In this document: piece by piece, positions 8,238-41,572 of the stretch
Layout: each line of letters opens with the position of its first letter
Position numbering within the stretch: position 1 is the first letter of the stretch
Assembly (NCBI RefSeq): GCF_055900595.2
Contig: NZ_CM148325.1
DNA: 64,000 bases
Reading direction: 5' to 3' (one strand)
Position numbers and translations under genes: made by a program
Notes under the pieces: model-generated
Told to the model about the DNA's origin: nothing
Database searches by the model: none
The model's input: only the letters and a program-made list of their open reading frames with translations

Positions 8238-8375
8238 CGTGTAATGGCTGCATGAAATAAACAATAAAATATAAATAACATTATCAGCCTGCCGACGGCT
8301 TGAAGAGAGTCACAGTATCTTGTGCAACATTATTGGAAAGAGTGAGGGGGCGAGGTAGCGAAGCGGAAAAATGTT

Positions 8376-8481
8376 AAAAAAAAGCCCATCGTGGGAGATG
8401 GGCAAAGACTACACACAGCAATTCGTTGTTTCACTCAGGGGATTTCCATGCTTATAAATCAATATGTTGATTTATAACCGT
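8376..8481 (-). ncRNA. rprA: RprA small regulatory RNA (rpoS translational activator)
   Basis: Minus-strand sequence ACGGUUAUAAAUCAACAUAUUGAUUUAUAAGCAUGGAAAUCCCCUGAGUGAAACAACGAAUUGCUGUGUGUAGUCUUUGCCCAUCUCCCACGAUGGGCUUUUUUUU recognised as RprA; ends in a GC hairpin plus U8 terminator; located between ydiK and ydiL. Confidence 0.9.
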
Positions 8482-14054: not shown

Positions 14055-14177
14055 GGCTTAGCTTTATGAGACTATTCTTATCGCCCCTTCGAGCTAAGCC
14101 ACTGTGAGTGCCGGAGATAAGCGCCGGATGGGGTAGAAACCCTTAAGCCTGTGATGCACAGACTTAAGGGTTTTCTT
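14055..14177 (+). ncRNA. Candidate small RNA locus ending in a strong intrinsic terminator (position matches rydB; sequence not verified)
   Basis: Nested inverted repeats (gcttagc/gctaagc, cttatc/gataag) followed by an 11-bp perfect stem aaacccttaag/cttaagggttt and a T-tract; about 220 nt downstream of ydiH and 290 nt upstream of sufA. Confidence 0.35.
14137..14177 (+). terminator. Rho-independent terminator (11-bp perfect stem plus T-tract)
   Basis: aaacccttaag-N15-cttaagggtttt followed by cttatttc; U-tract only on the + strand. Confidence 0.7.
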
Positions 14178-14267
14178 ATTTCTGAACGCTGCACTTTTTT
14201 ACCTATCTCTTAAATAGTCATTTTCAATACAACTTTTTCTTTTTCATCACAGCCTTAATGCTCCTTA

Positions 14268-14283
14268 GATAATAATCATTATC
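14268..14283. promoter_or_regulatory. Distal Fur-box-like motif (GATAATAATCATTATC)
   Basis: Shares the 12-mer ATAATCATTATC with the promoter-proximal site 133 bp downstream; matches Fur consensus GATAATGATAATCATTATC. Confidence 0.45.
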
Positions 14284-14403
14284 TAACAATGAGATACCTA
14301 ATTCTTAGCGTGCCTGTTAACCCACACATCAGGGTCTATGCTTATTAAAAGCAGGCAAAAAGCATGTTTTACGGTAAAGCCCCTGCGTTTGCTGGGTTGA
14401 ACT

Positions 14404-14416
14404 GATAATCATTATC
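14404..14416. promoter_or_regulatory. Promoter-proximal Fur box of the suf operon, overlapping the core promoter (TTGAAC -35-like just upstream)
   Basis: GATAATCATTATC about 47 bp upstream of the sufA ATG; suf operon is a known Fur target. Confidence 0.7.
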
Positions 14417-14462
14417 ACTAACATGCTGTTATACGCTGAAAGCGATGAAGTGAGGTAAATCG

Positions 14463-14831
14463 ATGGACATGCATTCAGGAACCTTTAATCCACAGGATTT
14501 CGCCTGGCAGGGTTTAACGCTGACACCCGCAGCCGCTGTCCACATCCGTGAGCTGGTGGCAAAGCAACCAGGTATGGTCGGCGTGCGCTTAGGCGTGAAG
14601 CAAACGGGCTGCGCGGGATTTGGCTATGTGCTCGACAGTGTTAGCGAGCCAGACAAAGACGATCTGCTGTTTGAACATGACGGCGCGAAGCTGTTTGTCC
14701 CGCTGCAAGCGATGCCGTTTATTGATGGCACGGAAGTCGATTTCGTTCGTGAAGGACTTAATCAGATATTCAAATTTCACAACCCGAAAGCCCAGAATGA
14801 ATGTGGCTGTGGCGAAAGCTTTGGGGTATAG
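14463..14831 (+). CDS. sufA: Fe-S cluster A-type carrier (122 aa)
   Basis: 122-aa [21 protein letters not shown]..., C-terminal CGCGESF motif. Confidence 0.95.
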
Positions 14832-14839
14832 GCGGTACT

Positions 14840-16327
14840 ATGTCTCGTAATACTGAAGCAACTGACGATGTCAAAACCTGGACCGGCGGCCCGCTGAATT
14901 ATAAAGAAGGATTCTTCACCCAGTTAGCCACTGATGAGCTGGCAAAGGGGATAAACGAAGAGGTGGTGCGCGCAATATCGGCGAAGCGTAATGAGCCGGA
15001 GTGGATGCTGGAGTTTCGTCTCAATGCCTATCGCGCATGGCTGGAGATGGAAGAGCCGCACTGGCTGAAAGCGCACTACGACAAGCTGAATTATCAGGAT
15101 TACAGCTACTACTCAGCACCATCGTGCGGTAATTGTGACGACAACTGCGCGTCTGAACCCGGCGCGGTGCAGCAAACTGGCGCGAACGCCTTTTTAAGTA
15201 AAGAGGTGGAGGCGGCGTTTGAGCAGTTGGGCGTTCCCGTGCGGGAAGGCAAAGAGGTGGCGGTGGATGCCATTTTCGACTCTGTTTCGGTTGCCACCAC
15301 TTATCGCGAAAAACTGGCGGAGCAGGGAATTATTTTTTGCTCCTTTGGCGAGGCGATCCACGATCACCCGGAACTGGTGCGTAAATATCTCGGCACCGTG
15401 GTGCCGGGGAATGACAACTTCTTTGCCGCGCTTAATGCGGCGGTAGCCTCTGACGGTACGTTTATTTATGTGCCTAAAGGCGTGCGCTGCCCGATGGAAC
15501 TTTCCACCTATTTTCGCATTAACGCGGAAAAAACCGGGCAGTTTGAGCGCACCATTCTGGTGGCCGACGAAGACAGCTACGTCAGCTACATTGAAGGCTG
15601 TTCCGCTCCGGTGCGTGACAGCTATCAGTTACACGCGGCGGTGGTGGAAGTCATCATCCATAAAAACGCCGAGGTGAAATATTCCACGGTACAAAACTGG
15701 TTCCCTGGCGATAACAACACCGGCGGTATTCTCAATTTCGTCACCAAGCGTGCTTTGTGCGAAGGCGAAAACAGCAAAATGTCATGGACGCAATCAGAAA
15801 CCGGGTCAGCGATTACGTGGAAATATCCCAGCTGCATTTTGCGCGGCGATAACTCCATTGGTGAGTTTTACTCGGTGGCACTGACCAGCGGTCATCAGCA
15901 AGCGGATACCGGCACCAAGATGATCCACATCGGTAAAAACACCAAATCGACCATTATCTCGAAAGGGATCTCTGCCGGACATAGTCAGAACAGTTATCGC
16001 GGCTTAGTGAAAATCATGCCGACGGCAACCAATGCGCGCAATTTCACTCAGTGCGACTCAATGCTGATTGGCGCTAATTGTGGGGCGCATACCTTCCCGT
16101 ATGTCGAATGTCGCAATAACAGCGCACAACTGGAGCACGAGGCAACGACATCACGTATTGGTGAAGATCAACTGTTTTACTGCCTGCAACGCGGGATCAG
16201 CGAAGAAGACGCCATCTCGATGATTGTTAACGGTTTCTGCAAAGACGTGTTCTCAGAACTGCCGCTGGAATTTGCCGTTGAAGCACAAAAACTCCTCGCC
16301 ATCAGTCTTGAACACAGCGTCGGATAA
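14840..16327 (+). CDS. sufB: Fe-S cluster assembly scaffold SufB (495 aa from [10 protein letters not shown])
   Basis: ATG at 14840 within ORF 14801..16327; SufB sequence. Confidence 0.95.
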
Positions 16328-16336
16328 GGAATAAAC

Positions 16337-17083
16337 ATGTTAAGTATTAAAGATTTACACGTCAGCGTGGAAGATAAAACTATCCTGCGCGGATTAAGCC
16401 TCGACGTTCGTCCCGGCGAAGTTCACGCCATTATGGGACCCAATGGTTCGGGGAAAAGTACCTTATCGGCAACGCTTGCCGGACGCGAAGATTATGAAGT
16501 GACGGCTGGCACGGTTGAGTTTAAAGGCAAAGATTTGCTTGCGCTGTCGCCGGAAGAACGTGCAGGCGAAGGCATCTTTATGGCCTTCCAGTATCCGGTG
16601 GAAATACCCGGCGTCAGTAACCAGTTTTTCCTGCAAACGGCACTTAATGCGGTACGCAGCTATCGCGGCCAGGAAACGCTCGACCGCTTTGATTTTCAGG
16701 ATTTGATGGAAGAGAAAATCGCTCTTCTGAAAATGCCGGAAGATTTATTAACGCGTTCGGTAAACGTTGGTTTTTCCGGCGGCGAGAAAAAGCGCAACGA
16801 TATTTTGCAAATGGCGGTGCTGGAACCGGAGTTATGCATTCTTGATGAGTCGGACTCCGGGCTGGATATTGACGCATTAAAAGTGGTTGCCGATGGCGTG
16901 AACTCGCTGCGTGACGGCAAGCGTTCATTCATCATTGTTACGCACTACCAACGCATTCTCGACTACATCAAGCCTGATTACGTCCATGTGCTGTATCAGG
17001 GACGAATTGTGAAATCCGGCGATTTCACATTGGTCAAACAACTGGAGGAGCAGGGTTATGGCTGGCTTACCGAACAGCAGTAA
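16337..17083 (+). CDS. sufC: Fe-S cluster assembly ATPase SufC (248 aa)
   Basis: Walker A GPNGSGKST; ABC signature FSGGEKKR. Confidence 0.95.
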   Translation: MLSIKDLHVSVEDKTILRGLSLDVRPGEVHAIMGPNGSGKSTLSATLAGREDYEVTAGTVEFKGKDLLALSPEERAGEGIFMAFQYPVEIPGVSNQFFLQTALNAVRSYRGQETLDRFDFQDLMEEKIALLKMPEDLLTRSVNVGFSGGEKKRNDILQMAVLEPELCILDESDSGLDIDALKVVADGVNSLRDGKRSFIIVTHYQRILDYIKPDYVHVLYQGRIVKSGDFTLVKQLEEQGYGWLTEQQ

Positions 17084-18329
17084 CGTGCTGCAACAGTGGC
17101 ATCATTTGTTTGAAGCCGAGGGTGCAAAACGCTCCCCGCAAGCACAGCAGCATTTACAACAATTGCTGCGTACCGGACTGCCGACACGTAAACATGAAAA
17201 CTGGAAATATACGCCGCTGGAAGGGCTGACCAATAGCCAGTTTGTCAGCATTGCGGGAGAGATATCCCCACAGCAGCGTGATGCCTTAGCGTTAACATTA
17301 GACGCTGTGCGGCTGGTTTATGTTGATGGACGCTACGTGCCAGAACTTAGCGATACAACTGAAGGCAGCGGGTATGAAGTGAGCATTAACGACGACCGTC
17401 AGGGATTGCCCGATGCTATTCAGGCGGAAGTATTTCTCCATCTGACGGAAAGCCTGGCGCAAAGCGTGACGCATATCGCCGTGAAGCGCGGTCAACGGCC
17501 GGCAAAGCCATTACTGTTAATGCATATCACCCAGGGCGTGGCAGGTGAAGTGGTGAACACAGCTCATTACCGGCATCATCTGGATCTGGCTGAAGGTGCC
17601 GAAGCGACGGTGATTGAGCATTTCGTTAGCCTGAATGACGCTCGTCATTTCACCGGAGCGCGCTTTACCATCAATGTCGCAGCGAACGCCCACTTGCAGC
17701 ATATCAAGCTGGCGTTTGAAAACCCGGTCAGTCACCACTTTGCCCATAACGATTTGTTGCTGGCTGACGATGCCACTGCAATTAGCCACAGTTTCCTGCT
17801 GGGTGGCGCAGTATTACGACACAACACCAGTACGCAACTCAATGGCGAAAACAGCACGCTGCGGATCAATAGTCTGGCGATGCCGGTGAAAAACGAGGTG
17901 TGTGATACCCGTACCTGGCTGGAACACAATAAAGGTTTTTGTAACAGCCGACAGTTGCACAAAACTATCGTCAGCGACAAAGGCCGCGCGGTATTTAACG
18001 GTTTGATCAACGTCGCGCAGCACGCCATCAAAACGGATGGTCAGATGACCAACAATAATCTGCTGATGGGCAAACTGGCAGAAGTGGATACGAAACCGCA
18101 GCTGGAAATCTATGCAGATGATGTGAAATGCAGCCACGGCGCGACGGTGGGGCGTATTGATGATGAACAGATGTTCTATCTGCGCTCGCGTGGGATCAAT
18201 CAGCAGGATGCCCAGCAGATGATCATTTACGCCTTTGCTGCCGAACTGACGGAAGCACTGCGTGATGAGGGGCTTAAACAGCAGGTGCTGGCCCGAATCG
18301 GTCAACGACTGCCAGGAGGTGCAAGATGA
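17058..18329 (+). CDS. sufD: Fe-S cluster assembly protein SufD (423 aa)
   Basis: 423-aa ORF overlapping the sufC 3' end by 26 nt. Confidence 0.95.
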
Positions 18330-19546
18330 CTTTTTCCGTCGACAAAGTGCGGGCCGACTTTCCGGTGCTTTCTCGTGAGGTAAACGGTTTGCCGCTGGCT
18401 TATCTCGACAGCGCTGCCAGTGCGCAAAAACCGAGCCAGGTGATTGATGCCGAGGCGGTGTTCTATCGTCACGGCTACGCGGCGGTACATCGCGGTATTC
18501 ATACCTTAAGCGCCCAGGCGACCGAGAAAATGGAAAACGTGCGCAAGCGTGCTTCGCTGTTTATCAATGCCCGTTCCGCGGAAGAATTGGTGTTTGTCCG
18601 CGGCACCACGGAAGGCATTAACCTGGTCGCCAATAGCTGGGGCAACAGCAACGTGCGAGCGGGCGATAACATCATCATCAGCCAGATGGAGCACCACGCT
18701 AACATTGTTCCCTGGCAAATGCTTTGCGCGCGAGTGGGTGCAGAGCTGCGTGTGATTCCTCTCAACCCCGACGGTACGTTGCAGCTGGAGATACTGCCTA
18801 ATCTGTTCGATGAGAAAACTCGCCTGCTGGCAATTACCCATGTCTCCAACGTGCTTGGGACAGAAAATCCGCTGGCCGAGATGATCACCCTTGCACACCA
18901 ACATGGCGCAAAAGTACTGGTGGATGGCGCTCAGGCGGTGATGCATCATCCGGTGGACGTTCAGGCGCTGGATTGCGATTTTTACGTGTTCTCCGGGCAT
19001 AAACTGTATGGCCCCACTGGAATTGGCATTCTTTATGTCAAAGAAGCCTTGTTGCAGGAGATGCCGCCGTGGGAAGGGGGCGGTTCGATGATTGCCACCG
19101 TCAGCCTGAGTGAAGGCACTACCTGGACTAAAGCACCATGGCGGTTTGAAGCCGGCACACCCAATACCGGAGGCATCATTGGTCTTGGCGCGGCACTCGA
19201 GTATGTTTCGGGGCTGGGGCTTAATAACATAGCCGAGTATGAACAGAATCTGATGCATTACGCGCTGTCACAGCTGGAGTCTGTACCGGATCTCACTCTC
19301 TATGGTCCCCAGAACAGACTTGGCGTTATTGCTTTTAATCTTGGTAAACACCACGCCTATGATGTTGGCAGTTTTCTCGATAATTACGGCATTGCTGTGC
19401 GTACCGGACATCACTGCGCTATGCCATTAATGGCCTATTACAACGTTCCTGCCATGTGTCGGGCGTCGCTGGCTATGTATAACACCCATGAAGAAGTGGA
19501 TCGTCTGGTGACCGGCCTGCAACGTATTCACCGTCTGCTGGGATAA
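18326..19546 (+). CDS. sufS: cysteine desulfurase SufS, PLP-dependent (406 aa)
   Basis: 406-aa ORF; class V aminotransferase features; ATGA overlap with sufD. Confidence 0.95.
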
Positions 19547-19558
19547 CAGGGAGGCACT

Positions 19559-19975
19559 ATGGCTGTATTGCCGGATAAAGAAAAATTGCTGCGTAATTTT
19601 TTACGCTGCGCCAACTGGGAAGAGAAATATCTCTACATTATTGAGCTGGGCCAGCGTCTGCCAGAATTACGCGACGAAGACCGAAGCCCACAAAATAGCA
19701 TCCAGGGCTGCCAGAGTCAGGTATGGATTGTGATGCGTCAAAATGCGCAGGGAATTATTGAATTACAGGGCGACAGCGATGCGGCGATTGTGAAAGGGCT
19801 TATTGCGGTCGTCTTTATTCTTTACGATCAAATGACACCGCAGGATATTGTCAATTTCGATGTGCGCCCGTGGTTTGAAAAAATGGCGCTCACCCAACAT
19901 CTCACCCCATCACGCTCACAAGGTCTGGAAGCGATGATTCGCGCAATTCGCGCCAAAGCCGCTGCACTTAGCTAA
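19559..19975 (+). CDS. sufE: sulfur acceptor SufE (138 aa)
   Basis: 138-aa ORF last in the suf cluster. Confidence 0.95.
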
Positions 19976-20123
19976 ACTAAAGGGACAGCTTTCATCCGGT
20001 TGACTCACATTGCCGGGTGGTCAATGTTTACACTGGCCTGCACAGGAGTGTTTTGGTTTCAGGTGAACATAAGCGCCATCCGACGTTTCAGCGTGAGTCT
20101 CCGGCAAATACAGGAGGTTTACA

Positions 20124-41019: not shown

Positions 41020-41063
41020 TCCATTTCACTCCAGACCCTAACTTCAGCTCCTGCAAAATCGCA

Positions 41064-41079
41064 AGGTAAACGTTTGCCT
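41064..41079. promoter_or_regulatory. PurR operator-like site (aGGTAAACGTTTGCCt) in the purR leader
   Basis: Matches the pur-box core GCAAACGTTTGC at 11/12 positions; about 45 bp upstream of the purR start; purR is autoregulated. Confidence 0.55.
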
Positions 41080-41317
41080 TTACACACCTTACGCACAACA
41101 AAAGTGTTGCGGTACGCCGGAAAAACGACACGGAGCGTCAGGAAGGGGTCAATGGCCAGTACGCAAATAGTGTAAGCGTGGAATTTTGGCCGATCTTGAC
41201 GAAAAGGGGAAGTGGTAAAAACACTTATCATTATAAATGACGGGAGATTTTTTCATCACAGTGTGTAAAAATGCGTAATATCACTTTTTGTGTGGTAATA
41301 AAAAAGGAGAAAACTTG

Positions 41318-41407
41318 ATGAGCACCGACCTTAAATTTTCACTGGTAACAACGATTATCGTCCTCGGTTTGATCGTAGCCGTGGGTTTGACTGCCGCGCT
41401 GCACTGA
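41318..41407 (+). CDS. ynhF: 29-aa hydrophobic small membrane protein (MSTDLKFSLVTTIIVLGLIVAVGLTAALH)
   Basis: ATG at 41318 preceded by AAAAAGGAGAAAA RBS; single TM helix; followed by hairpin cgagggag/ctccctcg; absent from the ORF track because it is under 60 aa. Confidence 0.75.
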   Translation: MSTDLKFSLVTTIIVLGLIVAVGLTAALH

Positions 41408-41572
41408 TTTCCTCTCGAGGGAGCGCGTTCTCCCTCGCATCTCCTTCCTGTTTGTTAGCAAAATGGCAAAAGTGTTTTCTCTTTTTGTTATTTTCATTTT
41501 TTTGTGATTGCTGTCATGCTTTCGCCACTTTAATGAATATCGCGTAATGACGCGAAGAGGTGGAGATAAGGC

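Follow-up and report, generated by a model that had tools for sequence, protein, structure and literature searches.

The analysed stretch, called the window below, comprises 64,000 nt of contig NZ_CM148325.1 (NCBI RefSeq assembly GCF_055900595.2), and its positions 14463-19975 hold six co-oriented genes in the order sufA-sufB-sufC-sufD-sufS-sufE, as established from the table of open reading frames (ORFs) and by direct reading of every junction (Table 1). Judging from the sequence, this is almost certainly the canonical sufABCDSE operon of Escherichia coli, which is complete and evolves under purifying selection. It is a known and ordinary operon, and the initial annotation, which had called it a compact suf operon with overlapping junctions, described it correctly. 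In the Suf pathway of iron-sulfur (Fe-S) cluster assembly, SufS, a pyridoxal phosphate (PLP) enzyme, uses Cys364 to take sulfur from cysteine as a persulfide, which passes to Cys51 of SufE and on to SufB; the cluster is then assembled by the SufBC2D complex, which draws on its SufC ATPase (Lys40), and SufA carries the cluster to apo-proteins.

Gene content and integrity

We aligned the six genes to those of E. coli K-12 MG1655 and found 0 internal stops and 0 insertions or deletions in any of them, which bears out the claim that all are full length. Gene lengths, gene order, junctions, flanking genes and the start and stop codons of all six genes are those of K-12, and the proteins are 97-99.8% identical to their K-12 counterparts, with 24 amino-acid differences in 1832 residues (SufA 1, SufB 1, SufC 4, SufD 12, SufS 5, and SufE 1). 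At the nucleotide level the operon is 95.9% identical to that of K-12, with some stretches of sufS and sufD as low as ~91-93%, and the differences are mostly synonymous: divergence is 0.16 at synonymous (pS) and 0.0057 at nonsynonymous (pN) sites, and the resulting pN/pS of 0.035 argues for ongoing purifying selection on the suf genes. Every Suf protein passes the cut-off of its NCBIfam equivalog hidden Markov model (HMM) by a wide margin and from first to last residue, and the Pfam domains are as expected. Three of the proteins also span solved chains, namely SufB (PDB chain 5awf_A over residues 1-495), SufD (2zu0 and 5awf chains over 1-423), and SufS (E. coli SufS/CsdB chains over 1-406). 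The catalytic and ligand residues that we take to be needed for Suf activity are present in each protein: Cys50, Cys114, and Cys116 in SufA; Cys254, Cys405, and Glu434 in SufB; the Walker A motif GPNGSGKST with Lys40, the signature FSGGE, the Walker B motif ILDE with Glu171, and His203 in SufC; His360 in SufD; Lys226, Cys364, and His123 in SufS; and Cys51 in SufE. For Lys40 of SufC, the functional role is stated in the literature (PMC8593673).

An operon could nonetheless seem intact and yet be weakened by missense changes specific to its lineage, amounting to a cryptic loss of function. The least conservative lineage-specific substitutions are SufS E45V, SufD E165V, and SufD F88Y; the first two, which neither K-12 nor the closest genome carries, replace a mostly acidic residue, and at the site of the third 24 of 25 relatives have Phe. 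However, the changes leave every known catalytic and ligand residue untouched, and all changed positions vary somewhat among genera, including those of all 12 SufD differences from K-12. Together with the low pN/pS and HMM scores well over the cut-offs, this makes a cryptic loss of function highly improbable. The initial annotation had also read the operon as an intact Fe-S assembly pathway for oxidative stress and iron limitation. Protein identity, HMM matches, key residues, and a near-identical promoter region all support this, and the pathway is probably active. Our result thus confirms that the E. coli lineage of the window has kept a complete Fe-S assembly pathway and an intact regulatory region.

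Table 1. Features of the suf operon and its upstream region, with positions counted from the first nucleotide of the window.
Feature	Position	Strand	Description
Putative distal activator region	14195-14305	+	Presumed OxyR and IHF site positions, approximate; one base (14276) differs from K-12
Putative IscR type-2 site	14376-14401	+	AAAGCCCCTGCGTTTGCTGGGTTGAA; read directly; identical to K-12
Core sufA promoter	14397-14431	+	Read directly; identical to K-12
-35 element	14397-14402	+	TTGAAC; read directly
Fur box core	14404-14416	+	GATAATCATTATC; read directly
-10 element	14419-14424	+	TAACAT; read directly
sufA	14463-14831	+	A-type Fe-S carrier, 122 aa; NF007050, 248.5 bits (cut-off 161), residues 1-122 of 122
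sufB	14840-16327	+	Scaffold subunit, 495 aa; NF008773, 891.9 bits (cut-off 717)
RyhB small RNA pairing site	14846-14869	+	sufB codons 3-10; core GTAATACTGAAGCAA at 14847-14861
sufC	16337-17083	+	ABC-type ATPase, 248 aa; NF007134, 539.5 bits (cut-off 400), residues 1-248 of 248
sufC/sufD dual-coding junction	17044-17083	+	Shine-Dalgarno sequence GGAGGAG 17044-17050, sufD ATG 17058, sufC stop 17081-17083
sufD	17058-18329	+	Scaffold subunit, SufB paralogue, 423 aa; NF008194, 796.5 bits (cut-off 489)
sufD/sufS junction	18314-18329	+	Shine-Dalgarno sequence AGGAGGT 18314-18320; ATGA start/stop overlap 18326-18329
sufS	18326-19546	+	PLP-dependent type II cysteine desulfurase, 406 aa; NF006791, 869.4 bits (cut-off 661), residues 1-406 of 406
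sufE	19559-19975	+	Persulfide acceptor/shuttle, 138 aa; NF006792, 268.7 bits (cut-off 160), residues 1-138 of 138

The sufA promoter and the RyhB pairing site

Unlike the suf coding regions, which differ from K-12 by 2-6%, the ~290 nt upstream of sufA (14170-14462) differ by a single base, a T for C at 14276. A Fur box and an IscR motif can be read directly in this otherwise K-12-like region, as would be expected of a stress-responsive promoter, and the putative IscR site fits what we take to be the IscR type-2 motif. Mutations in the sufA promoter (PsufA) have been reported at -56 to -51 and at -50C (PMC12594620), and these land on the putative IscR site if transcription starts at about 14431. 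A footprint of the small RNA RyhB has been mapped at +51 to +74 of a sufAB fragment (PMC12533949). Because the IscR-site mutations and the numbering of the RyhB footprint are independent sets and both agree on this position, we infer a transcription start near 14431 with a 32-nt leader. A simple promoter scan did not list the weak sufA promoter. The distal activator sites presumably lie at about -236 to -196 (OxyR) and -156 to -126 (IHF) relative to the transcription start, both positions being approximate.

Published work documents control of suf by iron limitation and oxidative stress (PMC8593673, PMC12594620), with holo-Fur repressing and apo-IscR activating the operon and OxyR activating it from far upstream together with IHF (PMC8593673). 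As established for the suf operon, these regulators act on a single promoter upstream of sufA; under such control the operon of the window would be on during iron limitation and oxidative stress. Separately, a second palindrome resembling a Fur box, TTAGATAATAATCATTATC, was observed on the + strand at 14265-14283, ~155 nt upstream of the likely transcription start. By our own count it matches the 19-bp Fur consensus at 14 of 19 positions, against 13 of 19 in K-12, the T at 14276 improving the match. It falls in the region that we take to be the IHF site.

The core of the RyhB site, GTAATACTGAAGCAA, is complementary to nt 51-66 of RyhB with one bulge, and the 91 nt around it (14820-14910, which include the whole site) are identical to K-12. 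When the whole suf mRNA was scanned against RyhB with RNAduplex, long spurious duplexes were obtained and no site was discriminated; we therefore used the published site alone. RyhB would pair just inside sufB and thereby damp expression.

Junctions between the suf genes

The distances between the genes are +8 nt (sufA-sufB), +9 nt (sufB-sufC), -26 nt (sufC/sufD), -4 nt (sufD/sufS, ATGA), and +12 nt (sufS-sufE), all five equal to those annotated in K-12 MG1655 (b1684-b1679) and to those of the best E. coli match. Direct reading of the junctions thus reproduces the 26-nt and 4-nt overlaps and the 8-9 nt spacings given in the initial annotation. The 8-nt value assumes that sufB starts at ATG 14840. 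The longest sufB ORF (508 aa) begins at 14801, within sufA; we set this start aside in favour of ATG 14840, which is the RefSeq start, corresponds to residue 1 of PDB 5awf_A, is conserved in other genera, and keeps the sufA-sufB spacing at 2-14 nt in most of them.

To compare this layout among species, we searched species-representative genomes with SufC, which yielded 80 loci, and rebuilt the six genes at each locus by tblastn and projection of start codons. The sufC/sufD overlap is 26 nt in about 37 Enterobacterales loci and 2 Vibrio loci (23 nt in one Vibrio); a few loci of Photorhabdus and Arsenophonus seem to depart from this but retain ATGGCTGGCTT. Almost all Enterobacterales and Vibrio loci have a sufD/sufS spacing of -4 or -1. 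These loci share with the window the six genes, their order, and both of these junctions, whereas their other three spacers are mostly longer than those of the window and range from 2 to 52 nt (sufA-sufB), from 4 to 120 nt (sufB-sufC), and from 6 to 202 nt (sufS-sufE). Only Escherichia loci have the 9-nt sufB-sufC spacer, and shorter ones (3-4 nt) occur only in the two Vibrio loci. Given this variability, the 8-9 nt spacers are a local Escherichia trait. More distant sufBCDS(E/U) clusters, such as those of Xanthomonadales, Thiotrichales, and Bacteroidota, share the core order sufB-sufC-sufD-sufS and a SufC that is 61-70% identical, but their SufD is only ~30% identical, they usually lack sufA and often sufE, and their sufC and sufD meet at -4, at -1, or across a short spacer instead of at the -26 of the window. 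That only sufC/sufD (-26) and sufD/sufS (-4/-1) among the five junctions are fixed across the order is a modestly useful comparative by-product of this analysis.

At the sufC/sufD junction, an alignment of 39 Enterobacterales and Vibrio species shows almost no variation in GGAGGAG, in the sufD ATG, or in the four codons that open sufD. For the sufC codons Tyr(-8), Gly(-7), Leu(-5), and Glu(-12), the last of which lies inside the Shine-Dalgarno sequence, entropy at the synonymous third position is 0-0.17 bits, compared with an average of 1.06 bits for conserved degenerate sufC codons upstream. Such low synonymous entropy is the signature of a second frame that is truly translated, and it points to a clear constraint on both reading frames in the overlap. 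The recurrence of the -26 and -4 junctions in ~37 independent species, combined with these frozen synonymous sites, indicates that the layout goes beyond chance.

These data also speak to the suspicion that the 26-nt overlap is an annotation artefact and that SufD begins at a later codon, such as the in-frame GTG at 17085. This codon lies one base past the sufC stop, the classic +1 coupling distance, and the solved structures come from recombinant full-length constructs and hence do not prove the native SufD start. Yet the GTG was created by the lineage-specific change SufD A10V; K-12 and E. albertii read GCG, and we dropped it as a start since it was found in the lineage of the window only. 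Moreover, the near-invariant block consists of the annotated ATG, the GGAGGAG 7 nt before it, and the MAGL(P) codons after it, the sufC synonymous positions that could destroy the sufD Shine-Dalgarno sequence or ATG are those that are frozen, and NF008194 aligns to SufD from residue 1. A downstream start is accordingly very hard to credit, and we keep the annotated ATG.

How sufD is then translated depends on how far overlapping genes can be coupled. Coupled pairs are characterized by a spacing of -4 to +3 nt with a Shine-Dalgarno sequence upstream, and the -4 NTGA arrangement occurs most often and ranks with the most efficiently coupled spacings (PMC12548453). The sufD/sufS pair, with AGGAGGT 5 nt before its ATGA, looks like a textbook example of such termination-reinitiation junctions, and by analogy translation of sufS would be coupled to that of sufD. 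The sufC/sufD pair differs, as its -26 nt lies outside the range of efficient coupling; in one systematic synthetic study, overlaps near -25 nt showed no reinitiation coupling (reviewed in PMC12548453). Because the overlap is beyond the range of efficient reinitiation, sufD is more likely to be initiated from its own strong Shine-Dalgarno sequence inside the end of sufC. A literature search found no published report on translational coupling of sufC and sufD.

A different form of coupling would arise if a hairpin hid the sufD Shine-Dalgarno sequence and AUG, so that only ribosomes finishing sufC opened it and tied SufD synthesis to that of SufC. The same review favours RNA unfolding as the likelier model for long overlaps (PMC12548453), and in the window the segment 17000-17110 is predicted to fold at -38.1 kcal/mol (z = -3.3), with the sufD ribosome-binding site pairing with the segment around the sufC stop; for the leader and the other four suf junctions, the predicted folds are no better than those of shuffled sequences. 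However, RNAalifold applied to 26 Enterobacterales and Vibrio junctions gave no consensus helix (-5.1 kcal/mol, 0 compensatory pairs), and the 3' arm of the predicted hairpin is conserved in close relatives only. A conserved, strong Shine-Dalgarno sequence would in any case be sufficient for independent initiation. We rejected the hairpin for its lack of consensus structure and covariation, and consider coupling through it unlikely.

The 26-nt overlap would persist through constraint on both frames (SufC ...GYGWL and SufD MAGL...) and on the Shine-Dalgarno sequence. One might speculate that it is also kept because weaker coupling suits a 2:1 ratio of SufC to SufD, the ratio held in the SufBC2D complex (PMC8593673). 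Taken further, the overlap may be a selected device, in which partly occluded independent initiation replaces efficient reinitiation and sets SufD below SufC, matching the 1:2:1 composition of SufBC2D; the RyhB site just past the 8-nt sufA-sufB junction would likewise allow discoordinate control of sufA and sufBCDSE. We offer this tentatively and think it rather improbable. The fixed junctions provide a simple, testable handle on how the SufB:SufC:SufD stoichiometry might be set in translation.

No sequence feature speaks against the canonical suf operon. The points that weigh against our overall reading of the locus are that SufS E45V, SufD E165V, and SufD F88Y are lineage-specific changes at fairly conserved positions, that the proposed coupling mechanisms face a reported absence of termination-reinitiation coupling at -25 nt in one synthetic study, and that a consensus scan after sufE found no convincing canonical intrinsic terminator.

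Lineage, neighbouring genes and other RNAs

Of 5426 complete E. coli genomes, 5424 carry the suf region and 5413 carry at least 80% of it at 95-99% identity, so that the operon counts as a core feature of E. coli; in 11 complete genomes less than 80% is found, and 2 lack the region entirely. Matches to the region lie on plasmids in 2 of 5429 cases. No complete E. coli genome exceeds 98.6% identity over the region (K-12, 95.9%), and the profile is mosaic, blocks of 100% identity to the nearest genome alternating with blocks of 95-98%. Upstream of suf the best match is 98.7%. Downstream, by contrast, 22-42 kb of the window is 99.6% identical to only nine genomes. These identities point to a sparsely sampled E. 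coli lineage as the source of the window and to a recombinant history around suf, which leaves the interpretation of the operon unchanged. Among the relatives, NZ_JAATUR010000015.1, labelled Escherichia coli SCPM-O-B-8794, has a suf operon that shares only ~93% identity with those of K-12 and the window, a distance equal to that of E. albertii, and probably represents a cryptic Escherichia clade catalogued as E. coli.

The synteny ydiJ-menI-ydiH-rydB-sufABCDSE-ldtE-lpp is common to the window, K-12, and the best E. coli match. The small RNA gene rydB, between ydiH and sufA, lies at 14083-14141 on the + strand (Rfam RF00118, 71.7 bits); K-12 and the closest genome have 2 nt (AA) after ~14090 that are missing from this copy, which also differs from them by two substitutions. 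At the other end of the operon, the 148-nt sufE-ldtE spacer (19976-20123) is predicted to form a long imperfect hairpin with a folding energy of -54.1 kcal/mol (z = -2.6). Antisense ORFs opposite sufS (18506-19258, 250 aa) and sufD (17814-18305, 163 aa) were dismissed as chance ORFs because antisense stop-free lengths are erratic among relatives, the shortest being 78 aa and the longest over 400 aa, with 91 aa in E. albertii. Elsewhere in the window, further RNA genes were found for RprA (8374-8481, - strand), STnc550 (41020-41410, + strand, 396.5 bits), and two adjacent tRNAs (32273-32427, - strand). A match to the antisense RNA HPnc0260 (32146-32308, + strand) partly overlaps the tRNA gene at 32273-32346.

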